DNA of 64,000 nucleotides from Nitrospirota bacterium (GCA_963701855.1 CAVPBK010000001.1:96001-160000); one strand, 5' to 3'; shown: positions 1,746-56,003, numbered from the stretch's first letter. Notes: a model not told the origin generated them from the sequence alone. Program-made: numbers and translations.

Positions 1746-1783
1746 CTAGGAAAAACCCTGGCGTTGAGGCGCAATCTTACTAG
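1746..1783 (-). promoter_or_regulatory. Composite operator copy 1, followed by GTTCAC-17-TACCAT promoter-like element
   Basis: Minus strand CTAGTAAgattgcgcctcaacgCCAGGgtttttCCTAG; same spacing as three other copies. Confidence 0.7.
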
Positions 1784-1795
1784 AGGCCGGCAGGG

Positions 1796-1902
1796 GTGTG
1801 AGACGTAAGACGTGAAACGTAAAACGTGAAACGCCGCTCGTTTCCGGACCAGAACGTTTCACGTCTCACGTTTAACGCTCTGCGACGCTTTACGATCGAC
1901 GT
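1796..1902. repeat. 7-bp-periodic inverted repeat (ACGTRAR units, then their complement)
   Basis: gagacgtaagacgtgaaacgtaaaacgtgaaacg ... cgtttcacgtctcacgtttaacg. Confidence 0.8.
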
Positions 1903-2017
1903 CAGCGGTTGCAGTGGAAGTCGTCAGGAAGAATGCCGGTTTGCAGGCTGTGAAAAACTATTATGGTACGCCTGGCAGTCAATGGCCCCTGCGCCTGGAG
2001 CAATGAGGATTGGACAA

Positions 2018-2232
2018 GCAGGATGCTCAAAAAGGCCGGACATCTCACCCGCCCAACCCCGGCGCGCCAAGACGCGCCTTTACCCAAACAAGGCCGCAGC
2101 GATCTATCCCTTAACTAAGGGGTGGCTGGGATGATCCCAACTGCGCGCGTCCAACGAGGGCCTTCGGAGGCCGCGCGTTGCGCGAGCAAAGGGATCGTCC
2201 CAGCTACCCCGCTCCCTTTTTCAGCATCCTGC
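2018..2232 (+). mobile_element. MITE-like element, family A, GC-rich structured cargo
   Basis: TIRs GCAGGATGCTCAAAAAG / CTTTTTTCAGCATCCTGC; core ACTGCGCGCGTCCAACGAG...GCGCGTTGCGCGAGCA shared with many copies. Confidence 0.75.
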
Positions 2233-2235
2233 CCA

Positions 2236-2886
2236 CTAAAGGCCGGTGATGCCATGGGTGATCGCATACTTCGTCAAGTCGGCAGTGGTGTGAAGATCCA
2301 GCTGCTGCATGATGCGGGACTTATGGAACTCCACCGTTTTCACGGACACGTTAAGGATCGTGGCGACCTCTTTCGTGCCGCGGCCCTCCGCGACGAGCTG
2401 CAAGACTTCCCGCTGCCGCGCAGTGAGCACTGCGGACGAAACCTTCTTGCCTCGCTCCCCGGTGGGGGGCTTGAGAACCGAGTCCAGCACATCTTTCGTG
2501 AGCAGGGGCGTGAGATAGTGTTGGCCTTGGAGGACGGACTTGATTGCCAGACTGAGTTCTGAAGCCGCGGAGCGCTTGAGGAGATACCCGGAGGCCCCGG
2601 CCTGGAAGGCTTCGGCCGCATAGGTGGGACTGGCATGCATGGTAAGAAAGATCAGCTTGCTTCCCGGCACCAGGCTGCAGAGTTGCCTGGCCGCTTCGAG
2701 ACCGTTCAACAGCGGCATCGAGATGTCCAGGAGAATCAGATCCGGGCGCAGCTTCTGCGCCGCCTCAACCAGCGCCCGCCCGTCCTCCACCGTACCCACC
2801 ACGTCGCACTCAACTTCCACCAGCTTCCGCAAGCCGGCAAGAATCAGCAAGTGGTCATCTGCCATGAGCACGCGCGGTTTCTTCAT
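2236..2886 (-). CDS. NarL/LuxR-family response regulator
   Basis: Receiver (ADDH, LLDISMP, K) plus LuxR HTH (LTARQREVLQLVAEG...TVEFHKSRIMQQL). Confidence 0.95.
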   Translation of the reverse strand: MKKPRVLMADDHLLILAGLRKLVEVECDVVGTVEDGRALVEAAQKLRPDLILLDISMPLLNGLEAARQLCSLVPGSKLIFLTMHASPTYAAEAFQAGASGYLLKRSAASELSLAIKSVLQGQHYLTPLLTKDVLDSVLKPPTGERGKKVSSAVLTARQREVLQLVAEGRGTKEVATILNVSVKTVEFHKSRIMQQLDLHTTADLTKYAITHGITGL

Positions 2887-5315
2887 GCGCCCTTTTGAAA
2901 ACGGGGAATCCAGGCACAGACCTTCGTGCCGACCCTTGGCAAGGAATGGATCCGGAGAAACCCGCCCAGCCCACGCGCACGCTCCGCCATGCTTACCAGG
3001 CCGAGTCCTCTCGTGCGATTGTTCTTGCTCTCATGATCGAACCCCTTGCCGTTATCGCGCACCGACAAGCCGATCCCCTTTGACGAGCCGCTCAACCTCA
3101 CCATAACCTCGGTCGCCTGGGCATGCTTGGACACATTCTGCAGACTCTCCTGCATCACGCGAAACAGATTAGTGGCCACCTCCAGCGAGAGAATCTCAGG
3201 CACCTCACGAGCGGTAAACGTCACGGGCAGCCCGGTCCGCTTCGTGAACTCGGCGACGTGGTCTCCTACAGCGGCCGCCAAGCCAACGTGCTCGAGCAAG
3301 GACGGGTGCAGCCTGTACGCCAGATCGTGCAGGTCGTCGGAAAGCTGCCCGATCTGAGCTCGGACATCAGCGAGTTGTCGAGCCAGCGGCCCGGGTGGGA
3401 TGAGGGAGGTTCTTTCCATGGTCTCCAGTTCAACCGATAGAGCCGCCAATCGTTGATTGAAGTCGTCGTGCAATTCTCGCGCGATCCGCTTGCGCTCCTC
3501 TTCTTGGGCCTCGATCAACTTCTCTGCCAGGGATTCCAACTCTTTCTGCTTTTCGCTGAGCAGGAGCACGTGCTTCTCCAAAGCCAGCCCCATCCGGACC
3601 CTGCTTGAGATATCCGTATGAGTCATGACAACGCCCTTCGCATCTTTCAACGGAGCCACGCGCATCAGAAACCAACGCTCTTCTTCCGAAAAATGGGAGA
3701 CATATTCCATACTAAAACTTTTTTGACTGCCCCCCAATACGACTTCAATGCCGCTGAGAATCGCCTGTGCTGTCGAGTCTCCGGCGTCGATCGCTCGCCG
3801 GCAGACATCCAGATAATTCTGTCCGACATCGACACTGGAACCCACGCGACCAGAATTGCAATAGCTGAACTCTTTCCAGGCGTCGTTCGTCTTTATGATG
3901 ATCCCGCCCTTATCCAGCACGCAGACATGCGCAGTAAGTGAGTCCAGGATCGCGCGGGTGAAAGCGTCGCTGGCCTGCAGCGCTTCCTCCGCAACCTTCC
4001 GCCAGGTGATGTCAGTAGTAATACCGCACAGGGCATAGGGTTTTCCGTCTCCGCCGTACAACAGAAATTTGGAGACAATACTCGTGTGAGGACCATCGTC
4101 GTGCATGGCGACTTCTTCAAATTCGAGCGGAACTCCAGCCTGCAGTACCTCGAGATCGTTGGCACGAAACGCGGCGGCCATCTCGGGACAGAAAATGGCC
4201 TCATCCGTTTTGCCCACGACTTGCTCGTGAGTCATATGGGACACTCTTTCAAACTGGCGATTGACATGGAGATAGCGGCCCTCGGTATCCTTCAGAAACA
4301 CCATCCCCGGGCTGTTATCAAGAATGGCCTGGAGTCGCGCTTCGCTTTCGAGGAGCTCCTTTTCCACCCGCTTACGCTCGGTGACATCGCGCAGAATGAC
4401 AGTCAATAGCTTCTTGCCGCTGACCAGGACATGAGAGATGGAGGCATCGACGGGAAATTCCTCTCCATTGGCTCGCAGGCCGGACAGCCCGCCGGGTTGT
4501 CCCATCGAACGGGAAGTCGATTGTCTCAGTGCGAAGAGGCTCATATGATCATGGTGCGCCTGTCTGAACCGTTCAGGAATGAACCGGTCGAATGGTTGTC
4601 CTATCGCGTCGGCGCGTTGGCAGAGAAACATAGATTCTGCAGCTCGGTTGAAGACCACCACGCGCTCCCTCTCATCCACGGTGATGATGGCATCCATCGC
4701 CGATGAGATGATCGCGTCAAGCTGCGCCCGCTGAGCACCCACCACCGCCTCAGCCAGCCTGCGAGCGCTCACATCCAGAAACGCTGCCCGCCACTGGATG
4801 ATGTGCCCGGTCTCATCGTGAAGAGCAATACTCTCGAAATAAACGCAACAGGCGCCGGCGGTTCCGCCCAGGAGATGCACCTCACATTCTTGTCGCGTGC
4901 CTGTCTTCATGACATCCTGACAATGCCGATGAAAGATATCCTGATCATCCGATGCTATGAAGCGCGCGAGTGGTTGCCCGATCAGCTTCTTCCGGTCGAT
5001 GCCAAGTATTGCCCCGGCTCTCAGATTGGCCTCCACAACCTTGCCGTGGATATTCAGCGTGAGATGGCCGGCCGGGGAAAAATCGTAGAGCTCTACATAA
5101 CGGTCACGGCCCGCTTCTAGCTCCAGCTGGGTCCGACGCAATTCGTCGTTCTGCATCTCCAGCTCGATCTGATGAACTTGTAGTTCGTGCACCAGCTGTT
5201 GCACATCCTTGACCGGCATGGCCGCGACGTCATGGTTCGTGGCGCGCAGCAGTTTCTCCGCCTTTCGGCGAAGCCCGGTGGGTTTCATTGTCCCGCCTGG
5301 TTTCTTAGCCATCAC
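2883..5315 (-). CDS. Multi-PAS sensor histidine kinase, HisKA_3 (NarX/UhpB-type)
   Basis: Several PAS/PAC domains; EERKRIARELHDD, ESLQNVSKHA, DNGKGF, GLGLVSM. Confidence 0.95.
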   Translation of the reverse strand: MMAKKPGGTMKPTGLRRKAEKLLRATNHDVAAMPVKDVQQLVHELQVHQIELEMQNDELRRTQLELEAGRDRYVELYDFSPAGHLTLNIHGKVVEANLRAGAILGIDRKKLIGQPLARFIASDDQDIFHRHCQDVMKTGTRQECEVHLLGGTAGACCVYFESIALHDETGHIIQWRAAFLDVSARRLAEAVVGAQRAQLDAIISSAMDAIITVDERERVVVFNRAAESMFLCQRADAIGQPFDRFIPERFRQAHHDHMSLFALRQSTSRSMGQPGGLSGLRANGEEFPVDASISHVLVSGKKLLTVILRDVTERKRVEKELLESEARLQAILDNSPGMVFLKDTEGRYLHVNRQFERVSHMTHEQVVGKTDEAIFCPEMAAAFRANDLEVLQAGVPLEFEEVAMHDDGPHTSIVSKFLLYGGDGKPYALCGITTDITWRKVAEEALQASDAFTRAILDSLTAHVCVLDKGGIIIKTNDAWKEFSYCNSGRVGSSVDVGQNYLDVCRRAIDAGDSTAQAILSGIEVVLGGSQKSFSMEYVSHFSEEERWFLMRVAPLKDAKGVVMTHTDISSRVRMGLALEKHVLLLSEKQKELESLAEKLIEAQEEERKRIARELHDDFNQRLAALSVELETMERTSLIPPGPLARQLADVRAQIGQLSDDLHDLAYRLHPSLLEHVGLAAAVGDHVAEFTKRTGLPVTFTAREVPEILSLEVATNLFRVMQESLQNVSKHAQATEVMVRLSGSSKGIGLSVRDNGKGFDHESKNNRTRGLGLVSMAERARGLGGFLRIHSLPRVGTKVCAWIPRFQKGA

Positions 5316-5330
5316 CTGTTCCTCTCAACG

Positions 5331-5405
5331 CAGGCTGAGGTCAAGGTCAAGGTTGAGCAAAAATCACACTCTTTCATTCTCAACCTTAGCCTCAGCCTCG
5401 ACCTT
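5331..5405. repeat. 6-bp-periodic inverted repeat overlapping the cheBR 3' end
   Basis: caggctgaggtcaaggtcaaggttgag ... ctcaaccttagcctcagcctcgacctt. Confidence 0.8.
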
Positions 5406-8400
5406 CTCTTCCTGCCCCTTCACCTCTTCCATGGCCAACAGAATTCGGCCTGGTAGTGCCAGGTCCTGTTCGAGTCGGCGACCGTTGAGCGCCAATACCC
5501 TGCGTCCGATGTGAGGAAACGTCTGGTCCACAACGAAGTCCCGGAAGGAGCGATTCTTCGGCAGAATCTCCTCCAGCAGATGGCGTAAGCCTGGCAGGTT
5601 CCAGGCCCCGGCACAGAGGTGGTAGAGGAGCTGCTGCTCGACTTCTCGTGGCGTCACCTGAAAGGTCCGGTAGAAGGACTGGTTGGCCGAGACCACGCGG
5701 ACCTGGTCGTCCAGCATGAGCAGGGGTTCGCGAATCGTCTCGACGATGCTGACGGCCACGCCGCCCGCAGCCCGGACAACCTGCTCCGCGTTCCTCAACT
5801 TGGTGATGTCCTGAAACGTCAGCACGAGCCCGTCGATGGTGTTCTTGCCGGTCCGATAGGGCAGGATCCGCATGAAGAACCAGCTCCCGTCGGAGGCCTG
5901 AACTTCCCGCTCCTTGACGACGAGCGTCTGGAGCACGTCTTGCGCATCCTCCGACAGCCGGTCATAGGTCAGCTTCGAGACGATGTCCGACAGGGGGCGC
6001 CCGACATCGACGGCGATCAGGCAACTCACCCGCTTCGCCTCCAACGTGAACCGCTTGATGTGCAGCTCGTTGTCCAGAAAGATGGTGGCGATCTCTGTAC
6101 TGTTCAAGAGATTCTGTAGATCGTCGTTCGCGTCCGCGAGCGCATCGAGCTTGCCCTGGAGTTCAGAGTTGACGGTCAGCAGTTCTTCATTGAGGGATTG
6201 CATCTCTTCCTTCGTCGTCTCCAATTCCTCATTGGTGCTTTGCAGCTCTTCGTTGGTGGACTGCAACTCCTCGTTGGTGGACTTCAGTTCCTCATTGGAG
6301 GTTTGCTGTTCCTCGATCGTTTGTTGCAACCGCTGTTTCGTGAACTCCAGTTCCCGCAGAAGCCTGGACTCCCCTTTCTTCATCGGTGCGGCCTCTCGCG
6401 CCGGTGTTCCCTTCCGTGCAGCGGAGTTGTCCGCCTGCATCGTTTCAAACGTCACCATGAACAACCCCTGGAGGGCCTCCGGATCGACAATTCTCTTGAC
6501 GGTCAGGTTGACCAGGATGACGCTGCCGTTAGCCCTTACTCGTAGGCCGCGGCGCACGACTTCCTCCTCCTTGCTTGCCGCCTGATGGAGCGCGGTCGCC
6601 AGATCATGTTGCAATCCTTCCCGCGCCATCTCCACCAGACTGTGTGTCGGCGGGCCGGGCGCCGGTTCAAGATAGGCACCGGTGTGGCCATGGGTGTAGA
6701 CGACCTCGCCCCGACCATTCACGAGGACCGCCACCGGCGCGTAGCGCGAGACCAACAGCTGCTGGATGAGATCGGAAATCTTGGCGAGGCGCGCGGTGGG
6801 AAGGGGCACCCCGTCCTCCGCGTGAGTCCCGGTTGTCGCCCTCATCAATCCGCCCGGAAACCGCTCCAGGTGAGGAAACGTGCCTGTCTCTGCCGTCCGC
6901 CTGAACAGCTTCCATTTCCGGTCGATGACGGTAAAGAGTTGTTCGAACTCCCCGACCGTTTCGGACGTACCGAGAAATAGGATGCCATTCGGCTTCAAGG
7001 CGTAGTGGAACAGCGGTAGGATTTTGTGTTGCGCCTGAGCGTCCAGATAGATCAGGAGATTGCGGCAGGACAAGAGATCCAGCTTCGTAAAGGGGGCATC
7101 GGTCAGGATGTTATGCGTGGCAAACACGACCAGATCACGAATCTCCTTCTTGACCCGATAACTGCTGTCTTCCTTGGTAAAGAACCGCTGCAGGCGCGCC
7201 GGGGTGAGGTCCTCGGCGATGCCGACCGGGTAGAGGCCGGTGCGTGCCGCTTCAATGGCCCGGCTATCCAGGTCCGAGGCGAAAATCTGCACGGTGAAGC
7301 GGAGCTTCTTCTTCGTAAGGTATTCACGGATGAGGATTGCGAGCGAATAGGCCTCCTCTCCGGTCGAGCAACCGGCAACCCACAGGCGCAGGGTCGCGTC
7401 CTCGGACTTGCCCTCCACGAGCGCGGGTAACACTATCTGTTCGAGGACCTCGAAGGCCTGCGGGTCGCGAAAGAAGCTGGTGACCCCGATGAGCAGTTCC
7501 TGAAACAGGGCATCGAGTTCGTGCGGATTCGCCAGCACAAACCGGAGATACTGTCTCAGGTTCTCGATCTGGTGCACGTTCATGCGGCGTTCGATGCGCC
7601 GCTGAATCGTATTCTCTTTGTAGAGGGAAAAATCGTTCCCGGTCCGATCGCGCAAGAGGATAAAGATCTTGCGCAGCGTCTGGGAGGCGTCGCGCTCAGG
7701 GAGAAGTTGCGCCGGTTTCGTCAGACTGCGCGCATAGGCGTACAACGGTTCCGCCATCCGGCTCGCCGGCTGGACTACATCGACCACCCCAGCGGTTATG
7801 GCACTACGCGGCATGCTCTGATACTTGGCCGATTGCGGATCCTGCGCGATCGTCATGCCGGACTCGGCCTTGATCGCTCTCAACCCCACGGTACCGTCGC
7901 TGCCGGTCCCGGACAGGATGATCCCGACGGCTCGTTGCTTCTGATCCTCCGCCAACGAACGGAAGAAGTAATCGATGGGCAGCGGCACGCGATCCTGCGA
8001 GGGGGGCTCCATGAGGTGCAGGGTGCCGTGCAAGATCGCCAGATTGGTGCCGCCCGACGCTATATAGACGCCATTGGCCTCCACCTCCATCCCGTCCTTG
8101 GCCTCCACCACCGGCATCACGGTGCATTTACTGAGTAGGCTCGGCAGGAGACTGACATGGCCCGCGTGCTGGTGCGAGACCACCACGAAGGCCATCCCGC
8201 TGATGGGAGGCATGTGGCGGAAGAACTCTTCCATGGCTTCCAACCCGCCGGCGGAAGCGCCGATTCCGACGATCAGAAAACCGGGCAATGTGACGGGTAG
8301 AGCCAGGGATGGAACAGGTGTTGTCGGAGAAACCGTTGCTTTCACAGGTTGCCGCTTAGCGCTCTTGGGCTTGACGAGGGTCTTGGCAGCAGCTGTTCTT

Positions 8401-8537
8401 TTGGAAGTCTTTCGTGCCGCGGCCACAGAATCTTCTCCTCGGCATGACAAAATCCGCGGCATCGGGAAGTCGCGGTTCGCGCGCCCGCAGATGAGATGAA
8501 CGGATGATTGGGAGCCAGAGTCTAGGCCTTTTTTCAA
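5364..8537 (-). CDS. CheB/CheR fusion protein with coiled coil and PAS domains (true start probably a little downstream)
   Basis: GIGASAGG and ILSGTGSDG (CheB); GVTSFFRD, WVAGCSTGEEAYS, LSCRNLLIY (CheR); NEELQST repeats. Confidence 0.95.
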   Translation of the reverse strand: MKKGLDSGSQSSVHLICGRANRDFPMPRILSCRGEDSVAAARKTSKRTAAAKTLVKPKSAKRQPVKATVSPTTPVPSLALPVTLPGFLIVGIGASAGGLEAMEEFFRHMPPISGMAFVVVSHQHAGHVSLLPSLLSKCTVMPVVEAKDGMEVEANGVYIASGGTNLAILHGTLHLMEPPSQDRVPLPIDYFFRSLAEDQKQRAVGIILSGTGSDGTVGLRAIKAESGMTIAQDPQSAKYQSMPRSAITAGVVDVVQPASRMAEPLYAYARSLTKPAQLLPERDASQTLRKIFILLRDRTGNDFSLYKENTIQRRIERRMNVHQIENLRQYLRFVLANPHELDALFQELLIGVTSFFRDPQAFEVLEQIVLPALVEGKSEDATLRLWVAGCSTGEEAYSLAILIREYLTKKKLRFTVQIFASDLDSRAIEAARTGLYPVGIAEDLTPARLQRFFTKEDSSYRVKKEIRDLVVFATHNILTDAPFTKLDLLSCRNLLIYLDAQAQHKILPLFHYALKPNGILFLGTSETVGEFEQLFTVIDRKWKLFRRTAETGTFPHLERFPGGLMRATTGTHAEDGVPLPTARLAKISDLIQQLLVSRYAPVAVLVNGRGEVVYTHGHTGAYLEPAPGPPTHSLVEMAREGLQHDLATALHQAASKEEEVVRRGLRVRANGSVILVNLTVKRIVDPEALQGLFMVTFETMQADNSAARKGTPAREAAPMKKGESRLLRELEFTKQRLQQTIEEQQTSNEELKSTNEELQSTNEELQSTNEELETTKEEMQSLNEELLTVNSELQGKLDALADANDDLQNLLNSTEIATIFLDNELHIKRFTLEAKRVSCLIAVDVGRPLSDIVSKLTYDRLSEDAQDVLQTLVVKEREVQASDGSWFFMRILPYRTGKNTIDGLVLTFQDITKLRNAEQVVRAAGGVAVSIVETIREPLLMLDDQVRVVSANQSFYRTFQVTPREVEQQLLYHLCAGAWNLPGLRHLLEEILPKNRSFRDFVVDQTFPHIGRRVLALNGRRLEQDLALPGRILLAMEEVKGQEEKVEAEAKVENERV

Positions 8538-8562
8538 TATCAGGCAAGCAAGGCGATCGCCG

Positions 8563-8600
8563 CTAGTAATGTCTCCCTCCAGGACTAGGGGTCCTCCTAG
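8563..8600 (+). promoter_or_regulatory. Composite operator copy 2
   Basis: CTAGTAAtgtctccctccaggaCTAGGggtcctCCTAG between divergent cheBR and the 8720 gene. Confidence 0.7.
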
Positions 8601-8719
8601 TTTCCATGAACTGGTCCTGCCCTATACGTTACGCACTATCCATTTTGATCCATAGCCATTGCGCGTGACAGGTGGACATGACTCATCACCCATTTTCTTC
8701 TTGTCAGGGGGAGGACGAT

Positions 8720-8959
8720 ATGGCACAGGCCTATTTGATAGAATCTTCCATCCACCAACAACTCGATCGGGCCGGCACCTGTTCGCTGGATGAACTCGCA
8801 GCCCTGCTGCCCGGTTATTCCTGGGCCCAAGTCTTTGCCGCCGTGGACCGGCTGACCCGGGAAGGCACCGTCGCCCTCAAACATCCGGCTCCGTTCCGCT
8901 ACCTTCTCTCGCTCGCACCTCGTCGATCCGCCGAGGGAGGCGACGTGACGCCGGTCTGA
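8720..8959 (+). CDS. Small putative winged-helix protein (paralog 1 of 3)
   Basis: GGAGG RBS; motif SWAQVFAAVDRLTREG shared with 41582 and 60993 ORFs. Confidence 0.75.
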   Translation: MAQAYLIESSIHQQLDRAGTCSLDELAALLPGYSWAQVFAAVDRLTREGTVALKHPAPFRYLLSLAPRRSAEGGDVTPV

Positions 8960-8974
8960 ATTCCATGCGAGCAC

Positions 8975-9550
8975 ATGACACCCAGCGTTCGAGCTGCTTG
9001 TGAGGCGTCCATGTCATTTGTTTCATCATCGTCATCCCTTCCCGCACCATCGAATCTTTCTTATGGGCCATGTCATCGTAACGAAGGAATCATCGCAGTG
9101 AATCAGGAACAGGAAGCGACCGATCCCGGCATCGTTGTGCTATCCCTTTCTTTGCAAGTCTTGCACATGAACCAGCGGGCGATGGTTTTGCTCAATCAGT
9201 TGGAACATACCGGACAGAGCGTCGGAGCGGAGCGGGTCTTCGCCGCTCCGCTGCGCCAGCATTGTCAGGCTATCATTGACACATTGCGGGCACGCATGGG
9301 ATCGAACAACTGGAAACAATTCCAGCAATCCCGCACGATCGGCGATTCAACCTACTCGATCTTCGCGAATGGCTTCGGTCTTCCTGACCGAAGAAGTCTG
9401 TCCTCTTCCAGAATCGTAATGCTGCTCACTCCGCACAACCAATTGCCGATGGCCGTGAATCAGCAGAATGGAATCCTCGGAGGAGATCTCCGAGGGCAGC
9501 CACGGGGGCGCAGAGTCACGGTATGCAATCGGCCTGTAACAGGATGCTGA
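8975..9550 (+). CDS. Hypothetical protein with PAS-like segment (start uncertain)
   Basis: GIVVLSLSLQVLHMNQRA resembles a PAS N-terminus. Confidence 0.55.
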   Translation: MTPSVRAACEASMSFVSSSSSLPAPSNLSYGPCHRNEGIIAVNQEQEATDPGIVVLSLSLQVLHMNQRAMVLLNQLEHTGQSVGAERVFAAPLRQHCQAIIDTLRARMGSNNWKQFQQSRTIGDSTYSIFANGFGLPDRRSLSSSRIVMLLTPHNQLPMAVNQQNGILGGDLRGQPRGRRVTVCNRPVTGC

Positions 9551-9669
9551 ACAGTCCGCCAGTGCCGCAGCCTCCCATGAAGGACCTACCCATTCCATCG
9601 AATGAGGCAAGAACGCCTTCTCGCTCTCCGGCAGATTCCTACGCAACCTCCCACCTGTAAAATTTGATG

Positions 9670-9707
9670 CTAGTAAATTGTTCGAGCGGAACTGGGGCGT
9701 TTCCTAG
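9670..9707 (+). promoter_or_regulatory. Composite operator copy 3, followed by TTCCGC-17-TATAAC
   Basis: CTAGTAAattgttcgagcggaaCTGGGgcgtttCCTAG. Confidence 0.7.
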
Positions 9708-9808
9708 TTCCGCAAACGGCTGCATGTTCTTATAACTATGCCTTCTAAGGATCGGCACATCGTTGCATCACTGTTCCTTGTCTGACGGACGAACGAAAGA
9801 AGTGGCAT

Positions 9809-10102
9809 ATGTCTCTTGAAGCATTGTTCCCTCAGAACACTCGTGAGGCGACTTTTGCACCGATGAGAAAGACGTTCATCGCACCGACATTGCTCCCCAT
9901 CTGTTGCGTCTGCGGACTCATTCGAGACGATAATAGCTTTCCCTCTAGCCTTGACTGTTGGCTGACGCAGCGGACGTATCGCGAGGCCCATGGCATCGAT
10001 CCGGCCGAGATCGCGCTCACACACACCTACTGTCCTGAGTGTTTCAGGAAGGCCCGAACTACAGCGCAACAGCACTTCAGGGAGATCAGATCATCGCCAT
10101 GA
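9809..10102 (+). CDS. Small Cys-rich putative metal-binding protein
   Basis: LPICCVCGLIRDD ... THTYCPEC. Confidence 0.7.
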   Translation: MSLEALFPQNTREATFAPMRKTFIAPTLLPICCVCGLIRDDNSFPSSLDCWLTQRTYREAHGIDPAEIALTHTYCPECFRKARTTAQQHFREIRSSP

Positions 10103-10458: not shown

Positions 10459-10561
10459 GTGGTTCCTATGCAAGGATACAGGCTGAAGACTTAGGACCGA
10501 AGACTAAAAGCCTTCAGTCTATCTACCTAGGCCGTTACCTTGACTATGATAATCATGGAGG

Positions 10562-41581: not shown

Positions 41582-41821
41582 ATGATTTCTCATACACCCG
41601 TCACTGATCGCATTCTCGGAGCAGTCCAACGCACGCATGGGTGCGATCTGGATACGTTGACAAACAGTCTCTCTGACCTATCATGGGGCCAGGTCTTTCT
41701 TGAAGTCGATCGGCTAAGCCGGGAGGGTGAGGTCCTGGTGACGCTCGACACCGGAGGTCGCTACATGATCCGGATGCCGGAGCACAAGAAAGGGCGCGCG
41801 ACCCACTACGTCCGGTCCTGA
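41582..41821 (+). CDS. Small putative winged-helix protein (paralog 2 of 3)
   Basis: SWGQVFLEVDRLSREG; AGGAGG RBS. Confidence 0.75.
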   Translation: MISHTPVTDRILGAVQRTHGCDLDTLTNSLSDLSWGQVFLEVDRLSREGEVLVTLDTGGRYMIRMPEHKKGRATHYVRS

Positions 41822-49000: not shown

Positions 49001-49182
49001 ACTTCGACCGGTGAGAGACCGGGCGCGTCGGTCAGCACCTGCACCTGGATGTTCGTTACGTCGGGATACGCATCGATCGGGATAGACTGAAAGGCGAAGA
49101 CACCGGCGACGGACAACAGGCAGGCCAGGCCCAGAACCAGTATCCGCTGTCGCAGCGAAAATTCCAGAAGAGAGGCGATCAT
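46051..49182 (-). CDS. czcA: CzcA/CusA heavy-metal RND efflux permease
   Basis: PIDAYPDVT, GLGEVY, GLAIAIG..ADGS, LRLRPVVMT. Confidence 0.95.
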   Translation of the reverse strand: MIASLLEFSLRQRILVLGLACLLSVAGVFAFQSIPIDAYPDVTNIQVQVLTDAPGLSPVEVERFITYPLELQMTGLPGLAEIRSLSKFALSQITVVFNDDVDIYFARQLVLERIMAAKERLPDGLEPVMAPVSTGLGEVYQYYVEGPNAAETDPKIIETELMDQRTLQDWVLRPLLKSVPGVIDVNGMGGFVKQYQVLVDPAKLRKFDLTLHDIYSAVAKNNANAGGNVLERHAERAIVRSLGLIKTMSDIESIIVKEAGGTPVFVRDVAEVRIGHAVRLGSVVLNGEREVVAGTVLMIRGGNARQVVEAVKTKVEDLQQNNILPSGTKLLPFYDRTELVTAAINTVRDALIEGIVLVIFVFFFFLGHVRSAVVVTVSLIVTPLITFIVMQRLGLSANLMTLGGLAIAIGEIADGSLVVVENVYRHLAQNHGATKKSTSEVILQATKEVGRPILFSILIISVVFLPLMTLHGMEGKMFAPLAYTLVIALLASVVVTLTLSPVLASLILRGDHPEETRLAGWMKQRYVPVLTWTFRHRSLVLGSSTAIVLCSLALVPFVGREFIPLLEEGTLTPKIVRLPSVSLPESIEMEKQAHKVMLEFPEVRMAVSKIGRPEIAVGPEELNESEPIVSLSDRSTWKTATTQPQLTDAIRKKLAEIPGISVLMSQPIQHRVDELISGVRAECAIKLYGEDLDVLHDKAEKIAALMQLINGVKDIKVEQIAGQPYLTLDIDRQKIARFGINVADVQEIVTTAIGGKAVTHVYEGERRFQLTLRFPELQRNSIGTIGEIRVKSASGALIPMSELATIEMREGPFSISREQVKRRIYIGFNVVGRDIGSVVDEGRQKLESLVHLPEGYQMTWGGAFENMERANERLVIVVPITLGLVFFLLFWAFHSLRYATLIMINLPFALIGGVVSLWLSGQYLSLPASIGFIELFGLAVGNGIVLVSYINQLRSEGAQMDQAIVSGCVLRLRPVVMTMMTTLLGLLPLALAQGIGAEVQRPLATVVIGGLFTSTALTLVVLPALYRWFAEKEAGKEYAPEWV

Positions 49183-50375
49183 AGCGTCGGCTCGATCTTG
49201 TGGCGTTCCATCTCAGACTTGAGGACGAACGATCCCTTGGTCACAACCTGCTCGCCGGCGCTCACCCCCTCCAACACCGTTACTACCTCTCCCTGCTCGC
49301 TTCCCACCTTGACCATTCGCGCTTCGAAGTCATTCGTTCCCCGTTGAACAAATACCATCGTACCGGTTGGCCCGCTTTGGACTGCCTCGAGCGGCACAGT
49401 CAGGGCGTCCGGAGTCGGCGACGCATAGACGAGGACGGTGGCAAACATTTCCGGTTTCAGCAGCCGATCGGGATTCAGCACCGTCACCCGCAGGCGCATC
49501 GTACGGGTGGCCGGATCGAGCACATCCCCGATGTAGGTGATCGTTCCCGGAACGATGGCATGGGGATAGGCGAACACAATCACATTGACCTTCAGGTCCT
49601 TCCGGATGAACTCCACGTCCTTCTCCGGCACGTTGCCGACGACCCACACATCCGAAAGATCCGCGACGGTGAAGAGCTTCTGCTGCGTCTCGACCACCTC
49701 GCCCCTCGTGATTTTGCGCGTGATGACCCGGCCGTCGAAAGGCGCCCGTAGGGACACATCCGCCTTGATCGTATCCTCGCGATCCAGCCGTTCGACTTCC
49801 TGCCGGGGGACGCCGAGCAGTTCCAGACGGTTCCGCGCCTCGCGGGCTTCGGCTTGTGCCGTTTTCATCGTGGCCTCGCGGCGTTGCAACTCGGCCAGAC
49901 TCACAACCTTTTGTTCATACAGGTCCCTGGCACGCTCGTACGCCAGTTTCGCTTCGTGCAATTTTGCAGCAGATTTCAGATATGCCCCCTCCGCCACACC
50001 GAGGTCCGTACTGTGGAGCAACGCCAGCAAGGCGTCTTTCTTTACGTCTTGGCCGACATCCACATAGACCTTCACCACTCGGCCCCTGATGAGCGTGGTC
50101 ACCTCAGCCAGTTCATTTTCGTTGGCTTGAACTGTGGCGGGAAATTCCCGAGGTACCAGCAACTGGCCTCGGACAACCGGCGCGACCTCGATCACCGTCC
50201 GCGCGAGTTCTTCGGCTGTGAGATGGACAACTCCTGGCTTGTCGGCCACAACAGTCTTCTTAGCCTCACGCGCTTGATCGGGAGTTCTCTCGCAGGCAAT
50301 AAGCCCGGCGAACGCTAAGGCAACGAGGATAACGACTCTACGTCGATCGTGAAACGTGAAACGCTTCATGGTCAT
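49179..50375 (-). CDS. czcB: CzcB-like RND periplasmic adaptor
   Basis: APFDG, ADLSDVWV, LKPEMF, VVTKGSFVLKSE; overlaps czcA. Confidence 0.9.
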   Translation of the reverse strand: MTMKRFTFHDRRRVVILVALAFAGLIACERTPDQAREAKKTVVADKPGVVHLTAEELARTVIEVAPVVRGQLLVPREFPATVQANENELAEVTTLIRGRVVKVYVDVGQDVKKDALLALLHSTDLGVAEGAYLKSAAKLHEAKLAYERARDLYEQKVVSLAELQRREATMKTAQAEAREARNRLELLGVPRQEVERLDREDTIKADVSLRAPFDGRVITRKITRGEVVETQQKLFTVADLSDVWVVGNVPEKDVEFIRKDLKVNVIVFAYPHAIVPGTITYIGDVLDPATRTMRLRVTVLNPDRLLKPEMFATVLVYASPTPDALTVPLEAVQSGPTGTMVFVQRGTNDFEARMVKVGSEQGEVVTVLEGVSAGEQVVTKGSFVLKSEMERHKIEPTL

Positions 50376-50395
50376 ACCTTTCCGTTTTTGGAATC

Positions 50396-50411
50396 AGCAT
50401 GAGGTGTGCCA
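50396..50411 (-). promoter_or_regulatory. Candidate sigma54 promoter for czcBA
   Basis: Minus strand TGGCACACCTCATGCT (GG-N10-GC). Confidence 0.5.
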
Positions 50412-50736
50412 CGAAAAGCTCTCGATTTTACGGAAGAAATGGTCGGTCTAGATGCCTTTTGCCACGTTTCCGATGGAGGACCGTGGTGAAATGCGACAGT
50501 AGGGATTGCGGAGGCGAAGAACCGACAGGAGCGGTTACCACGTGAATGGAATGACCTTCGTGCTAGTTGTGATTTTTCACGAATGATCCCGACAAGGGAA
50601 CCGGGACAACGTGAATAAGACACCATCGTCCTTTAAGGGGACTGCCCGGCGTTGTTGTTCGTAGCGAGGCGAAGGAAGTGCGGCCAAACATGACCCCACT
50701 GGCATTCCAACCCTATTGTCTTCTGGAGATCTCTAA

Positions 50737-51078
50737 TCAAAACCCGTCGAGGGGCACTTTCTTCTTCGCTGCGTATTCGTCGTCGGTGATCAACCCGTCA
50801 TTGTGAATCTGCTTGAGTCGTTTCAGTTTTCCTTCGAGAGAAGAATCTGGATAAGCGGAAGGAGGCGATCCTTTTTCCTGTCCACCGTCTATCCGAGGAG
50901 CGTTCGATAAGAGCTGTTGATAGGCAAGGGCTAACTGTGGCGCCTCAGGGATCAGGAAAGTCCCAAGCCCGTTGTCCTCGTGAGGCAGGCGCTGATATGG
51001 CTCATAGAGAGCTCCGGCGATCATGCGCGGCGGATCCTGCCACATCAGCTCGCGGATGCTCGACATCGCATTGTGAGT
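50737..51078 (-). pseudogene. 3' remnant of a SHOCT-domain lipoprotein gene
   Basis: IRELMWQDP...LKRLKQIHNDGLITDDEY aligns by eye to the C-terminal half of 51593..52534. Confidence 0.65.
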
Positions 51079-51079
51079 G

Positions 51080-51430
51080 TTACTTGCCAAGACTCCGTAT
51101 GTAGGCGAGCACGTTCTGTATATCCTGCCCGTTGAGCCGGCTTTTCCACGCAGGCATTGTGCCGTGACCTTCACGAATCACTGTCCGCAGATCCGTATCC
51201 GATTTGCCCCTCACTTGTGGACCAGTCAAATCTGCCGGTGGCGGCCTGAGTGCTTCGCCCATGACTCCGTCTCCCTTTCCACCCTCTCCATGACACACCA
51301 CACAATTGATCGCATACAGTATTTTTCCTTTTGTGGAATCTCCGCTCTCGGCCGATGTCACTTGGGCGCCCACTCCTCCCGTAAATAAGCAGGATGCGGA
51401 AAACAGAACGAGAAGTTTCAAGCCATTCAC
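51080..51430 (-). CDS. Periplasmic monoheme cytochrome c
   Basis: Signal peptide, CVVCH, MPAW. Confidence 0.92.
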   Translation of the reverse strand: MNGLKLLVLFSASCLFTGGVGAQVTSAESGDSTKGKILYAINCVVCHGEGGKGDGVMGEALRPPPADLTGPQVRGKSDTDLRTVIREGHGTMPAWKSRLNGQDIQNVLAYIRSLGK

Positions 51431-51592
51431 CTAGTCACCTCTTTCTTTGTTTAAACCGTGGCCGAAATCGTGATCATCAGTTATTTTAAAGGGCCGTGGT
51501 GACGCAAGCCGCGTTCCATTCGCTTCCGTTGCGTCAGTATGAGTGACAGAGGGGAGCTTCATTTGGATGCGCCGGATTTGTCCAGTGGGCAT

Positions 51593-52534
51593 TTAGAGGC
51601 GCTCCAACAGCTGGTTTCTTTTATTGCGATACTCTTCCTCTGTGATCAAGCCCTGATCACGGAGTCGTTTCAAGACTTTCAACCGTTCTTCCATTGAGGG
51701 CTGATTGGTTTGCGCTTGAGGAAGACGTGAAGCACTGAAGCCATCTGGTAGTGCGGCCTTGGAGAGGGGCTCAGCCAGTAGAAGCGGTTGATAGGAGATC
51801 GAGATTTCATTGACTGGGGCACTCAGCACCCCGACTTCCTTATGTTGGATCACCGTCTGATGGTCACCGGGGACCAACTCATACAAATTGACCTGGCTCG
51901 AGAGCGGATTCTCCCAAACCAGCTCACGGATGTTCGGCGCAGTCACGGCATATCGATAGTTGGCCAGGAGCAGATGGAGGTGCGACCCTTCCATAAACCA
52001 CCCGCCGGAGGTGATCTCGGAGACGTCCGGTGCGCCAGGCCGGCTCAGTCCAAAGACCACCCACTCTGTTGGTTGTGCCTGGGCGAAGGCGAGGCTTAAG
52101 GTCCGGCTCAGGTAGTCGACTTCATCCTGCGTTAATGCATCATTGATTAGCCCCTTGGGCAATGAAAACAAGACGACCGGCTCACCCTGTCTTTGAACAC
52201 GAAGACTGCTCAGGATGATTTTCCATTCCTCGGGACTGAGCGTGAACGGATGAGAAAAGTTCGGTACGCGGTCTCGGCGTAATCCCGGGGACGGTCCTTG
52301 TAGCCGGACGAACCGATCCTCTCCCTCACACTCTCCGCAGACCATGCGACAATTTTCACAGGCCAAGCGAGGCGGGTGTGCCGGCCCAGCACAACCCTGA
52401 AGCAGGCCGGCGATTAGACCTCCGGTGAGCATTGCCACGACCACGCAGGCGCTTGTCGCACGTCGAACTCGCGCATAGCCGTGCGACGCGCTGACCTGAT
52501 GATCTTCCTGGAATTCTCGTTTGTGGGCTGTCAC
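51593..52534 (-). CDS. SHOCT-domain lipoprotein
   Basis: Lipobox LQGC, CENC/CGEC, C-terminal ERLKVLKRLRDQGLITEEEY. Confidence 0.8.
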   Translation of the reverse strand: MTAHKREFQEDHQVSASHGYARVRRATSACVVVAMLTGGLIAGLLQGCAGPAHPPRLACENCRMVCGECEGEDRFVRLQGPSPGLRRDRVPNFSHPFTLSPEEWKIILSSLRVQRQGEPVVLFSLPKGLINDALTQDEVDYLSRTLSLAFAQAQPTEWVVFGLSRPGAPDVSEITSGGWFMEGSHLHLLLANYRYAVTAPNIRELVWENPLSSQVNLYELVPGDHQTVIQHKEVGVLSAPVNEISISYQPLLLAEPLSKAALPDGFSASRLPQAQTNQPSMEERLKVLKRLRDQGLITEEEYRNKRNQLLERL

Positions 52535-52667
52535 GTGATTCGTTCAGACTCCTGATTTACGCGATGATGTCTTGCCGCTCTTGCTCTGTCAACCGGTGCC
52601 TGACAGAGGGACGGTGGTGAGAGGAAGAGAGGAGGTAACACCCACACCGGTGAGTCGGCTGAGCCGT

Positions 52668-53183
52668 CTAGTCACGAAGCGGCTCATCGAGATCTCCGAC
52701 CGTCAGACGATCTGGAGGCCATCGGTAGGCGCCCCTTACAGCGGAGGCAACCATCGCATAGCCAGGTGGTTCTTTTCTGACAAATTGACCGAGGAGGTCT
52801 GGTGTCGGGTTTCCATCGATCAGATAGACCACGCCCTTTTCATAACCCGTGGTCGGTGACGGGGCTGGAATGCCGACCGTGGCCAGCGCATGACTGGCCC
52901 GGGCCTTCTTCAACGCAGACAGGTAGGTGCGCACCTGCTCGGGAGTCCATCCTCCGTGATTGGTGACCACGACTGAGGCGTCTCCGATGACCATCACATC
53001 AATCATTGGCATGGGGGCATGCGTCGCCGCGCTGAACGCAGGCGGTGGTGCAGGCTCCGGCCTTCCCCACTCCATGAAGACTCGGATCATGGCGAAGACA
53101 ATGAGCACGACGGCACCTCCGAGCAGTACCTGCCGACCGGACAGACGGTGGACCGGAACGGACTGCTCGGGTCGGGATGGCAT
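52668..53183 (-). CDS. Hypothetical membrane-anchored protein
   Basis: Single TM helix; co-oriented within the operon. Confidence 0.6.
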   Translation of the reverse strand: MPSRPEQSVPVHRLSGRQVLLGGAVVLIVFAMIRVFMEWGRPEPAPPPAFSAATHAPMPMIDVMVIGDASVVVTNHGGWTPEQVRTYLSALKKARASHALATVGIPAPSPTTGYEKGVVYLIDGNPTPDLLGQFVRKEPPGYAMVASAVRGAYRWPPDRLTVGDLDEPLRD

Positions 53184-53307
53184 GGGACCCTTTCCTGGCA
53201 CAGATGAGCGCGCGAATCTTAGCACAGAGCTCAGCGAATTTCCTCGCTGGGCTCCCCTCCCTCAAGATATATCGACACCGGAGGAGGGAGCTGTGTGCCT
53301 GTCGAAA

Positions 53308-54771
53308 CTAGTACGCGAAGTCCAAGCCAACCAACATGGTCTGACCGAGCAGATCCCCGCCTCCTGTGCCGACCCCTTTGGTCCTGTAGGTGTTGTACTC
53401 AGCGTGTAGGGCCAGATCCGTCCGCGTGGATTGGTGAAGGAAGTACCGAACCAGAAACGTTTGGGAGTCAACATTGTTATAGTTGTGGTTAAAGGTGGGA
53501 TCCCCCTGCCGATCGTTGCGGATGATGTCGTACCGATAGGCGAAGAACCAATCGGGCACGTTCAGGAACGGAAGGAGCGTGGGATAGTAATCCAGCTCGA
53601 CAAAGCCGCCGTTCCACGAAGCGTTCTGGGCACCGGCGATGCCTTGAGAGACGAAGAGGTTCTTGCTGCTGTTGCCATGCACGAAGGCACCAAAGAGATT
53701 CCATTCTCCATTAAACGTGGTACTCAGATCCACGCCAATGTTGCTAAAGGGCTGGCCGCTTCCGCCCACAGCTTGACACGTGGGGCAAGTCGCGTTCACC
53801 GTGGTCGGGGCGTCCCCATAGACCCCGAAGAGGCCAATTCGATGGCCGGTCACGATGCCATATCCCCCGAAGGATTGCGTGACATGGCCGTAGAAATTGA
53901 CCCCACGTCCACCCGTACACGACTGGCCGGCCGGACAACCGCTCAACGGACCAGAAAACGTATTGGTTGACATTGCCGTGAAGCTGTAGCGGAAAAATCC
54001 ACTGGTGGGCGCGGTTTTCATCAGGCCCGCGAGTTCCGCTCCCGGTTGATTATCCCCGAGCCCAAACGAGTTGGGATTGGCGTAGGTGCTGGTGGATGTC
54101 CCGCTGATCGTGGCTGTATACGGTGTCCCCGGCGTGTAGTGGTACATGACAAATGGGGTGTTGAGCGTCGGACTGCGTTTTTCGCTGAACGGCAAATCCA
54201 ATTCGAATTTGCCTATACGGAAGTTCATGAGATAGTCGCCGGGCTTGCTCGTGATGCCCAGATATTTTTCCAGCCTCATGAGCCGAACGAAGGAGCTTTC
54301 CAAATCGCTGTCGCTGGCGCCGGTCCCAAATCCCGCGCTACCCAAGCCTGGCGTATACACGATGCCGAACGCCACATCGCGAGTCAATGTGCCGAAACTT
54401 AAAATATCGAGGCCGGTGAAGCCGAACCCACCCGTGCTGATCCCGCTGCCATCGGTACGGACACTAGCCGCCTGATAGCCGATGGTGGTCCGGAACGACA
54501 CGGGCCAAAAGCCCATGGTGATCCCTTCGTACGTGGGCATGTCCGCATCGGAGCCCATTTGATAGCCCCGATCCCGGAAGAGGTTGCCGAAGTCGTTCAA
54601 CTTTGGAAATCCAGGGACGTGGCAGACGTTGCACTTCATGTCGTATTTCCTCGCGAAGGCCGGAATGGCTTCCGCCTCAGGCGCACGATAGGTGAATTCA
54701 TGCAAGACGAGGACAATCAATACCAGCACGAGAAACGGAGCCCCTACGACGAATATCTCCCTATAGCGCAT
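53308..54771 (-). CDS. Cyc2-like fused monoheme cytochrome c / outer-membrane beta-barrel
   Basis: AIPAFARKY..KCNVCH...PKLNDFGNLFRDRGY matches the Cyc2 N-terminal motif; amphipathic beta-strands; terminal GLDFAY. Confidence 0.8.
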   Translation of the reverse strand: MRYREIFVVGAPFLVLVLIVLVLHEFTYRAPEAEAIPAFARKYDMKCNVCHVPGFPKLNDFGNLFRDRGYQMGSDADMPTYEGITMGFWPVSFRTTIGYQAASVRTDGSGISTGGFGFTGLDILSFGTLTRDVAFGIVYTPGLGSAGFGTGASDSDLESSFVRLMRLEKYLGITSKPGDYLMNFRIGKFELDLPFSEKRSPTLNTPFVMYHYTPGTPYTATISGTSTSTYANPNSFGLGDNQPGAELAGLMKTAPTSGFFRYSFTAMSTNTFSGPLSGCPAGQSCTGGRGVNFYGHVTQSFGGYGIVTGHRIGLFGVYGDAPTTVNATCPTCQAVGGSGQPFSNIGVDLSTTFNGEWNLFGAFVHGNSSKNLFVSQGIAGAQNASWNGGFVELDYYPTLLPFLNVPDWFFAYRYDIIRNDRQGDPTFNHNYNNVDSQTFLVRYFLHQSTRTDLALHAEYNTYRTKGVGTGGGDLLGQTMLVGLDFAY

Positions 54772-54942
54772 AATCAACCTCCACGGTCGGATTGAAAGGT
54801 GCGATACGGTGACAACGTGACGTGGCACCAGGGGGCGAGCCTCGACCTCCAGCCTCCCCAATGCGGGATCGGTTCACCTCATCCTTCTCTTGTCCGGCTC
54901 GCCGTTGATGCGTGGTATCCATGTATCTCCTCAGGACAGGCC

Positions 54943-55785
54943 CTACTCCATCGTGACAGGACGGACGGGAAATTCAAATCGTGTGTCCACCGTTTCTTTC
55001 GGTTTGACGTCCACTTTCTGTCGAACAATATGCGGGTCGTCGTAGACCGCTCGGGAGGAGTCTATTTTCTTGATCTTGTATCCCTCATGCCAGGCCACGA
55101 GGGTATAGGTGCCTGGCGGTACGCCATGAATCTCAAACTTTCCAGCGGCATCGGTGATCGCAAAATATGGATGATCAAATCCGGCGATATAGCCAGACAT
55201 GTGGGTATGGACGTCGCACTGATAAGGCAACCCGACCCCAAGACCTCGAAGGAGAGTGTGATCAACCTCCCGGTTCGGAGTGGGCATAGCCACATTAAAA
55301 ATGCTGCCGCGGTTGGCAGTGAAGAAATGCGGATTGTGGAGAATTGGGTCGAAATTAATTATTGCGACGAGCTGTGTCCGGACAAACGCAAGGATATGTT
55401 CCTTGAATTGGCATAGCTGCGTGTCTGGTTCTTTGCCGGTCTGGTCCTGTCCCATATGGAGCCAATATTTCTCTTCAAGCGCTTTCCCCTTTTCGACCTG
55501 CTCCAGATACACCAGAACGTGCTGGAGCCCTTTGCTCTTTGGATCCACCTTCAACACCGGGGATGGTGCCGTTTCACCGCATGTATCCAGATCCGCCTTG
55601 ACCGGGAGCGGGGGAATCGTCGGAATCTCGCCTTCCCAGGTCGCCACGCCTTTGATCGTCCCGCCGTTCGAGACGTTAATAACCTCATACTCGGCAAAGG
55701 CGGCCTCCGAACCACCTGCCAACACGAGCAGACTGATCGCTAGTATACATGACCAATCCGTAATTCGAGTTTTGATCCGTGTCAT
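54943..55785 (-). CDS. Exported cupredoxin-like / carboxypeptidase-regulatory-like domain protein
   Basis: Signal peptide; LHNPH ... QCDVHTHM; HPYFAITD..GKFEI.GVPPGTY. Confidence 0.8.
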   Translation of the reverse strand: MTRIKTRITDWSCILAISLLVLAGGSEAAFAEYEVINVSNGGTIKGVATWEGEIPTIPPLPVKADLDTCGETAPSPVLKVDPKSKGLQHVLVYLEQVEKGKALEEKYWLHMGQDQTGKEPDTQLCQFKEHILAFVRTQLVAIINFDPILHNPHFFTANRGSIFNVAMPTPNREVDHTLLRGLGVGLPYQCDVHTHMSGYIAGFDHPYFAITDAAGKFEIHGVPPGTYTLVAWHEGYKIKKIDSSRAVYDDPHIVRQKVDVKPKETVDTRFEFPVRPVTME

Positions 55786-55965
55786 CGCGCCTCCTTTTGC
55801 GTGAGGTTGTAACCACACTCGATTCGTCCACGAATCTCTTCCGCCAGAGACCCTTCTGGTGTCGGGCTCTCTTCATCTCTTCAGTTTGGAGTGTGAGCAC
55901 CATACTCAAATCTGCTCATCATGTTGGAGCGCAGAGACCCTAGCGGCAGTAAAGAAGTTCTGCAA

Positions 55966-56003
55966 CTAGGGAATCCTCTAGTCTTAATCGTAGAAATTAC
56001 TAG
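55966..56003 (-). promoter_or_regulatory. Composite operator copy 4, followed by TTGCAG-17-TAGGGT
   Basis: Minus strand CTAGTAAtttctacgattaagaCTAGAggattcCCTAG. Confidence 0.7.

Follow-up and report, generated by a model that had tools for sequence, protein, structure and literature searches.

A composite DNA motif, CTAGTAA-N15-CYRGR-N6-CCTAG, recurs four times (copies c1 to c4) in a 64,000-nucleotide stretch of bacterial DNA, contig 1:96001-160000 of its assembly, which we call the window; the source organism is Nitrospira, the name borne by every close locus. The composite pattern is real: the sequence itself, how rare and how conserved it is, the fixed geometry and a linked regulator gene are all established. 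Comparison among relatives lends good support to the prediction that a protein binds it as an operator adjoining a -35 element. As its reader we favour, at slightly better than even confidence, the neighbouring NarL/LuxR-type response regulator encoded at 2236-2886, which would act at activator-dependent promoters. The identity of the binder, activation rather than repression, and the positions of the start sites are what we infer here. Coordinates of the features are collected in Table 1.

An earlier note on this DNA had described four copies of the composite with identical spacing, each facing a downstream gene. Both points hold: a pattern scan gives exactly four matches in the window, none of 100 dinucleotide-preserving shuffles of it yielded any, and c1 to c4 are all intergenic and directed at genes. 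A regular-expression scan of the whole genome (15 contigs, 4,297,576 b) returns the same four and no other exact copy. Two or three CTAG tetranucleotides are found within each copy, although CTAG is rare in this genome (1.02 per kb, against ~3.8 per kb expected from base composition). Of the four, c2 contains a perfect palindrome CTAGG-N6-CCTAG, from which c1, c3 and c4 each depart at one position. Because the alignment of the four reveals little common sequence outside the named blocks, the spacers being wholly different, they are not copies of a repeat. When a weight matrix built from relatives' sites is run over the genome (8.6 million positions scored), six sites exceed 30 bits, the next best reaches 20.4 bits and none lies in between. 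All six are intergenic, compared with ~14% of the genome by a crude call of open reading frames (ORFs). The scan thereby corrects the size of the presumed regulon in this genome from four sites to six. The sixth site, in the region C5:19594-20236, faces a degenerate IS3-like transposase ORF; an insertion may have displaced the gene that it first served.

Table 1. Positions of composite sites, predicted promoters and genes (window numbering, or contig number preceded by C; aa, amino acids)
Feature	Position	Strand	Details
c1 composite	1746..1783	-	CTAGTAA 1783-1777, N15, proximal box CCAGG-N6-CCTAG 1761-1746; exact match
c2 composite	8563..8600	+	CTAGTAA, N15, perfect palindrome CTAGG-GGTCCT-CCTAG
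c3 composite	9670..9707	+	CTAGTAA, N15, CTGGG-N6-CCTAG
c4 composite	55966..56003	-	CTAGTAA, N15, CTAGA-N6-CCTAG; upstream of 291-aa/Cyc2-like operon
Fifth composite site	C8:7369	-	matrix match; precedes paralogue of c3 gene (53% identical)
Sixth composite site	C5:20193	-	matrix match; CTAGTAC..., 39 bits; precedes degenerate IS3-like ORF
Predicted c1 promoter	1717..1745	-	GTTCAC (1745-1740), 17 bp, TACCAT (1722-1717)
Predicted c2 promoter	8601..8628	+	TTTCCA, 16 bp, TATACG
Predicted c3 promoter	9708..9736	+	TTCCGC, 17 bp, TATAAC
Predicted c4 promoter	55937..55965	-	TTGCAG, 17 bp, TAGGGT
NarL/LuxR-type response regulator	2236..2886	-	Pfam Response_reg 2.7e-25, GerE 1.6e-17; candidate binder
Sensor kinase	2883..5315	-	four PAS stretches, HisKA_3, HATPase_c; stop overlaps regulator start
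CheB methylesterase/CheR methyltransferase/PAS fusion protein	5364..8537	-	real start probably ATG 8462
Receiver-only protein, c1 target	1176..1682	-	56% identical to regulator's receiver domain, without helix-turn-helix
Protoglobin + HisKA protein, 319 aa	176..1135	-	Protoglobin 3.2e-09, HisKA 3.4e-07
79-aa winged-helix-like protein	8720..8959	+	c2 target; the motif's most conserved target across Nitrospira (synteny)
97-aa Cys-rich protein	9809..10102	+	c3 target
Secreted 291-aa protein, first after c4	54943..55785	-	ORF from GTG 55818; AAGGAGG precedes ATG 55785
517-aa Cyc2-like protein	53308..54861	-	one CXXCH (KCNVCH) near N-terminus; C-terminal ...LDFAY
Second-class promoters	C11:277026-277069, C9:189230-189273, C6:847.9 kb, C12:61.6 kb		GTAGGMCATTTCTTAC + CTAGGGnnnnTCCTAG

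From the CCTAG end to the start codon of the gene faced, the distance is 63 nt for c1 (ATG 1682), 119 nt for c2 (ATG 8720), 101 nt for c3 (ATG 9809) and 180 nt for c4 (ATG 55785). The respective targets are the receiver-only protein, followed by the protoglobin-HisKA protein; the 79-aa winged-helix-like protein; the 97-aa Cys-rich protein; and the secreted 291-aa protein, followed by the CXXCH/porin-like 517-aa protein. Copy c2 lies in a divergent region, with the CheB/CheR-kinase-regulator operon on one side and the winged-helix gene on the other. At the gathering threshold, Rfam reports no RNA family anywhere in the window, the long c4 leader included.

Conservation in relatives is what gives these sites a promoter geometry. 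The earlier note had seen that in three copies CCTAG is followed directly by a hexamer, 17 bp and a -10-like box (TACCAT, TATAAC, TAGGGT), and direct reading agrees. The geometry of the c1 and c3 promoters is kept in relatives, where c2-type promoters read TTTCCC-17-TATACC/TATAAG. For a footprint we used 58 distinct sites (≤1 mismatch) from 80 loci around regulator orthologues and paralogues. In this set both palindrome halves are equally conserved, and there is conservation at positions that were unused in selection: T at +10 (54/58), T62/A63, and the two T residues directly after CCTAG (53/58 and 45/58). TANNNT is concentrated at offsets 62-64, with 40 occurrences, whereas no other offset from 49 to 91 has more than 5. 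Directly after CCTAG comes a -35-like hexamer, often TTCACA, which 17-18 bp separate from TANNNT. Conservation is thus limited to the blocks, with differing spacers and a constant distance to the -10-like box, and on these comparative grounds the notion of a protein-binding operator beside a -35 element is sustained. Counted from the presumed start, expected ~35 nt after CCTAG, the palindrome would span ~-51 to -36, with its centre at ~-43.5, and CTAGTAA would occupy ~-73 to -67. The distal box is offset from the proximal one by 22 bp, invariant in c1-c4, and conserves only CTAGTAA and the T at +10.

The motif is also widespread in the genus. Exact matches occur in 9 of 24 other Nitrospira genomes; 16 genomes that represent three further families of the order have none, and a reversed control pattern gives 0 everywhere. 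With ≤1 mismatch allowed, 47 of 85 genomes of the genus contain 114 matches in all, and the reversed pattern yields 28. The recurring sequences fall into three types, c2-like, c3-like and c1-like, which are orthologous promoters. The c2 type is the most widely conserved; the c3 type, with its TTCGAG spacer, returns in many genomes, and c1 has an orthologous copy just 3' of the regulator gene in relatives. Within the 80 regulator loci (1.24 Mb), ≤2 mismatches give 95 matches versus 5 reversed controls, and at least one match is present in 60 of the loci. One of these loci, L023, with near-consensus sites, comes from the isolate Nitrospira sp. NS4, whose regulator is 90% identical. A same-strand site lies ≤1 kb downstream of the regulator stop codon in 46 of 75 evaluable loci, so that the tie of the motif to the signalling cluster, proposed before from the window, is upheld. 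The next gene at those 46 loci is the 79-aa homologue in 21, the receiver-only gene in 13 and another or an undetected one in 12.

The cluster itself is laid out on the minus strand as CheB/CheR/PAS fusion, kinase and regulator, then a strong hairpin, c1, the receiver-only gene and the protoglobin-HisKA gene. No HATPase_c match was found by Pfam in the last of these, which is a putative kinase-like protein without its ATPase. In the regulator, Pfam finds Response_reg and GerE only, with no autoinducer-binding domain, and the best NCBIfam matches (MctR, PRK15369, UvrY) are all far below cut-offs. It is the only canonical DNA-binding protein conserved beside composite sites; the only other DNA-binding-like fold in the conserved cluster is the acidic winged-helix protein. 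The regulator's recognition helix, SVKTVEFHK, is nearly invariant in orthologues across loci with CTAG half-sites. A regulator clade with an ...EFHR... helix has a 15-bp palindrome (N5) in 8/8 loci read, and regulator and operator may possibly have co-evolved there. At these loci (L078, L080, L084, L085, L086, L089, L090, L091) the region after the regulator gene contains CTAGG-N5-CCTAG and a distal element, CCAGTAAT or CCAGCAAT.

In the mechanism we propose, each composite copy would make up the upstream half of a promoter that depends on an activator. Its palindrome of 16 bp (consensus CTAGG-N6-CCTAG) would abut a weak -35-like hexamer and be centred ~43.5 bp before the start, a class-II-type activator position, and the second, degenerate box would begin two helical turns (22 bp) further upstream. 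The most probable reader is a NarL/FixJ/LuxR-type response regulator that would bind, when phosphorylated, as one dimer or as two; for it the proximal box would be strong and the distal box a weak one filled cooperatively. The regulator at 2236-2886, presumably fed by the adjacent PAS/HisKA_3 kinase, is the best candidate. Its targets would be the receiver-only/protoglobin-kinase pair (c1), the winged-helix-like protein (c2), the Cys-rich proteins (c3 and the contig-8 paralogue) and, in one lineage only, the operon of the secreted 291-aa and cytochrome-porin-like proteins (c4).

A number of observations weigh against the regulator at 2236-2886 as the reader at activator-dependent promoters. 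A scan for the sigma-70 consensus (≥9/12 matches to TTGACA/TATAAT, 16-18-bp spacer) reports no promoter at c1-c4, and the promoter reading therefore rests on conservation in relatives, not on consensus strength. The weak hexamers fit an activator-dependent promoter, though they also count against there being a promoter. Strict phasing is not absolute, because two natural variants, L051 and the c4 site of the closest relative, have a 16-nt distal spacer and thus a 23-bp offset. In favour of the regulator, among 40 relatives the exact motif is present in 9 of the 11 genomes with a regulator ≥85% identical and in none of the 29 others, and in 8 of those 9 motif and regulator share a contig, within 8 kb of each other. 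This co-occurrence is phylogenetically confounded, since these genomes form a clade; it agrees with the proposed tie but does not test it independently.

Other points against it come from the palindrome itself. CTAG-N8-CTAG occurs at 29 sites in the genome, 19 of them intergenic, compared with the ~14% of sequence that is intergenic. When the 19 are read in both orientations (38 in all), 10 show TANNNT 23-24 nt beyond the palindrome, and no other offset has it more than once. Palindrome-only promoters have no distal CTAGTAA element, and their distance to the -10-like box is as in the composite. Since the palindrome alone is found at 29 sites, 19 of them intergenic, we regard it as the wider, genus-wide promoter element and the composite, with its six sites in the genome, as a two-box subclass. 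Further, a second promoter class joins the palindrome it shares with the composite, CTAGGGnnnnTCCTAG, to a different distal element, GTAGGMCATTTCTTAC, over 7 bp. At least on C11 and C6, promoters of this class precede an operon that pairs a winged-helix-like gene with one for a CheY-like receiver, with no adjacent GerE gene. The genome encodes 19 GerE-type proteins; the recognition helix of at least three besides the candidate resembles its own. Palindromes within 10 kb of GerE genes number 9 of 49 against 3.9 expected, a roughly 2-fold excess that is too weak to name a regulator. The palindrome may hence be read by another regulator, or by several.

This can be carried further, to two readers. 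A master regulator encoded elsewhere, for example one of the GerE-type response regulators at C6:365.7-367.1 kb or C9:167 kb, would bind the palindrome at ~20-30 promoters, and a second factor, whether the protein at 2236-2886 or some other, would read the distal CTAGTAA and add its own input at the six composites. The spread of the palindrome alone at an unchanged distance from the -10-like box, its pairing with GTAGGMCATTTCTTAC elsewhere and the several GerE proteins with similar helices all speak for such a division of labour. We nonetheless consider it unlikely. The distal element possesses a CYRG core and the T at +10 like the proximal box, as expected of a degenerate copy; the composite sites have no further DNA-binding gene as a conserved neighbour; and orthologues of the regulator always adjoin CTAG palindromes.

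Alternatively, the 79-aa winged-helix-like protein, alone or together with its Cys-rich partner, could bind the palindrome upstream of its own gene, an autoregulation in which the response regulator would be involved only indirectly. The motif followed by the winged-helix gene is indeed the most conserved pairing (the 21 of 46 loci given above). The genome has 12 paralogous loci of the 79-aa gene and 9 of the Cys-rich gene, with a palindrome upstream in 6/12 and 7/9, respectively, some of them with no GerE gene nearby. The model of the 79-aa protein (pLDDT, a per-residue model confidence, of 78) adopts a predicted winged-helix fold that resembles the DNA-binding domains of MarR, Fur and ArsR. 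The Foldseek matches are weak (TMq 0.58-0.72, E 3e-3 to 2e-2), however, and none reaches E ≤ 0.001. Neither this protein nor the Cys-rich one belongs to a Pfam or NCBIfam family, of transcription factors or otherwise, beyond weak sub-threshold matches. The homologues are acidic in 33 of 39 cases, with a net charge above zero in 3/39 and a median pI of 4.9, and a site ending at -36 would suit an activator rather than an autorepressor. Because it is acidic and in no named family, we take the 79-aa protein to be a target, perhaps also an adaptor, rather than what reads the site, and hold autoregulation to be quite improbable.

The remaining explanations fare worse. Read as CTAGTA-N16-CTAGGG, the motif could be the two-block promoter of an alternative sigma factor. 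Geometry alone speaks for this, the block starts being 22 bp apart, near the 23 bp between the starts of -35 and -10 elements when the spacer is 17 bp. We give it very little credence: the second palindrome half and the TT following it are as conserved as the first half and would be needless for a -10 block, a -35/-10-like pair distinct from these blocks is conserved further downstream, at constant spacing, and the palindrome-only promoters do without the supposed first block. Chance similarity, or copies of a mobile repeat, can practically be dismissed: the one point in favour is an unrelated repeat, of the miniature inverted-repeat transposable element (MITE) kind, next to c1, whereas none of the 100 shuffles matched, the spacers differ entirely between copies, orthologous copies are present in dozens of species and reversed-pattern controls are 4- to 19-fold lower.

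We return to the regulator at 2236-2886 and to the most distant of its presumed targets. The earlier note placed a cupredoxin/Cyc2-like operon in the regulon; the c4 site upstream of this operon is present, but the link is not conserved. Relatives of the 291-aa gene are found in 80 of 84 other genomes of the genus. Near the gene at 29 other loci there is neither a composite (≤3 mismatches) nor a palindrome (≤1 mismatch), except at that of the closest relative, L106. A lone match with 3 mismatches among the 30 loci (L134) has no CCTAG end and is not a real site. A palindrome near the gene is confined to our own locus (L105) and L106. The latter, with 81% protein identity in a region ~95% identical, reads CTAGTAtA..., keeping the palindrome and CTAGTA with a spacer of 16 nt instead of 15. 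Since only L106 among the 29 other loci has the site, we take the c4 link to the Cyc2-like operon, real in sequence, to be young and lineage-specific and no conserved feature of the regulon. As a recent rewiring it would be of interest for the growth of regulons; it provides no evidence of a conserved link between the signalling system and metal or electron-transfer metabolism.

The cupredoxin label of the 291-aa product found no confirmation in family searches. A C-x2-H-x2-M string is visible, but Pfam offers only CarboxypepD_reg-like matches in the C-terminal part, below cut-offs, and searches of NCBIfam and of PDB sequences were empty. The 517-aa protein has no Pfam or NCBIfam match. It looks Cyc2-like by appearance, that is, by its CXXCH, its aromatic C-terminal end and porin-type neighbours in the protein atlas; these are unnamed or called "putative cytochrome C", with clusters that contain Porin_O_P in 20% and 53% of members. 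Downstream of this gene (window 46051-53225, minus strand) follow a 185-aa protein, two SHOCT-domain proteins, a HlyD/CusB-type membrane-fusion protein and a 1043-aa pump of the AcrB type (resistance-nodulation-division family). The 185-aa protein has no family in Pfam or NCBIfam beyond weak sub-threshold matches. The c4 transcription unit may run on into this efflux system.

A bolder, and rather doubtful, extension would make the cluster the master switch of a genus-wide programme of CTAG palindromes, with stress, storage-sugar and small adaptor genes as members, comparable to a DosR-like survival regulon. The cluster's own genes would have the two-box operator, of high affinity, for feedback, the acidic winged-helix and Cys-rich proteins would be a new class of adaptors for receiver proteins, and in one lineage the switch would have been wired recently to the cytochrome-porin operon. 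If this is true, sensing of oxygen, nitric oxide or redox state would be coupled to extracellular electron transfer in a nitrite oxidiser.

By analogy, the nearest described architecture appears to be that of the tandem DevR/DosR boxes; as the box sequence differs from those of DevR and of ComA, we claim membership in neither system. DosS and DosT are haem sensors, and the cluster kinases here carry PAS and protoglobin domains. According to the available text on DevR promoters of Mycobacterium tuberculosis, at least two tandem boxes stand in helical phase, e.g. at -42.5 and -63.5, and cooperative binding to them is required for activation; the primary box is conserved, the secondary one poorly so, and the 18-bp Dev box has an essential G5 and C7 in each half (PMC3177182). 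Our proposal resembles this arrangement in its candidate reader, a NarL-family response regulator, in the pairing of a conserved palindromic box with a degenerate second one, in the position of the proximal box beside a weak promoter and in the distance between box centres, 21 bp there and 22 bp here (~-43.5 and ~-65.5) (PMC3177182). In contrast, CTAGG-N6-CCTAG is unrelated to the Dev box and does not qualify as one by the description in that text (PMC3177182). Other differences are that the distal box here keeps one strictly conserved half-site, that the regulator is no demonstrated DosR orthologue and that cooperativity is only proposed.

LuxR and TraR, which depend on acyl-homoserine lactones (AHL), bind as dimers with a GerE-type helix-turn-helix (HTH) to a palindrome of 16-20 bp just upstream of or overlapping the -35 region. 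The palindrome next to the -35 region and the GerE-type HTH are common to both cases; the candidate regulator differs in having a phospho-receiver and not an autoinducer-binding domain, the cluster contains no AHL synthase, and there is a second box upstream. ComA of Bacillus subtilis, another NarL/LuxR-type activator (tetrahelical HTH), likewise uses a canonical inverted repeat (RE1/RE2) plus a degenerate accessory "half-site", RE3, which is required for activation, as far as the accessible text of its description goes (PMC4797271). In that text RE3 lies downstream of the inverted repeat, as a direct repeat with RE4 (5-nt spacer), whereas our distal box is upstream at a 22-bp offset, and the sequences are unrelated (PMC4797271).

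For Nitrospira, no description of the motif or of its regulon was found among the papers listed by literature searches, judged from titles and abstract openings. The available portion of a paper on the CRP/FNR regulon employs canonical NnrR/FNR matrices and mentions no palindrome of the CTAG type (PMC8510549). What we offer is a testable architecture, in which a palindrome at ~-43.5 is preceded at 22 bp by a distal half-box, together with a specific candidate for the regulator and a short list of targets. As the two-box variant is tied to one two-component cluster, it narrows the search for the regulator of the palindrome regulon.

Several further features deserve description. Palindromes cluster at C9:172-213 kb, among genes for trehalase, GH15, CBM48/amylase and MscS proteins. 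Within C9:172000-213800 (loci L101-L103) there are ~12 palindromes in 40 kb, along with a GH15 glucoamylase/trehalase-like gene, two CBM48/alpha-amylase genes, MlaC and many small ORFs. Transposase and integrase fragments are also found in this region, and a GerE response regulator is encoded at C9:167.1-167.8 kb.

The family of the 79-aa and Cys-rich proteins is unnamed and mostly from Nitrospirota in the protein atlas. The Cys-rich domain (CxCG...HTxCPxC) is fused to the winged-helix domain in L081:6160-6624, L088:377-850 and L092:6504-6968; the two are separate genes here. Two more winged-helix-like paralogues lie in the window on the plus strand, at 41624-41776 and at 60993-61151, the second within an ORF (60795-61235) just before an HSP20 gene; the 400 bp upstream contain no palindrome in either case. 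In the c2 operon, the second gene (window 9101-9550, ~149 aa) has no family in Pfam or NCBIfam beyond weak sub-threshold matches and aligns at 41% identity with the N-terminal portion of a 211-aa frame on contig 4 (C4:50727-51254). Because this frame ends in a GerE domain, the ~149-aa gene seems to encode the sensor domain of a LuxR-type protein, with the HTH missing.

Between the regulator operon and c1, a long hairpin of GTGAAACG/ACGTAAAACG-type repeats is located at 1784-1895 on the minus strand. Its predicted RNA fold has -43.8 kcal/mol and z -3.6, as good as which none of 200 shuffles was, and it is shared with relative L019. It might be a terminator, albeit one without a T-run, or an insulator. 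Directly after the regulator stop codon stands an element of ~215 bp (2018-2235) with terminal inverted repeats, GCAGGATGCTGAAAAAGG ... CCTTTTTGAGCATCCTGC, which is absent from the 98%-identical L019. Because a blastn search with 1784-2235 gives 123 matches across the genome, this element looks like a member of a MITE-like repeat family.

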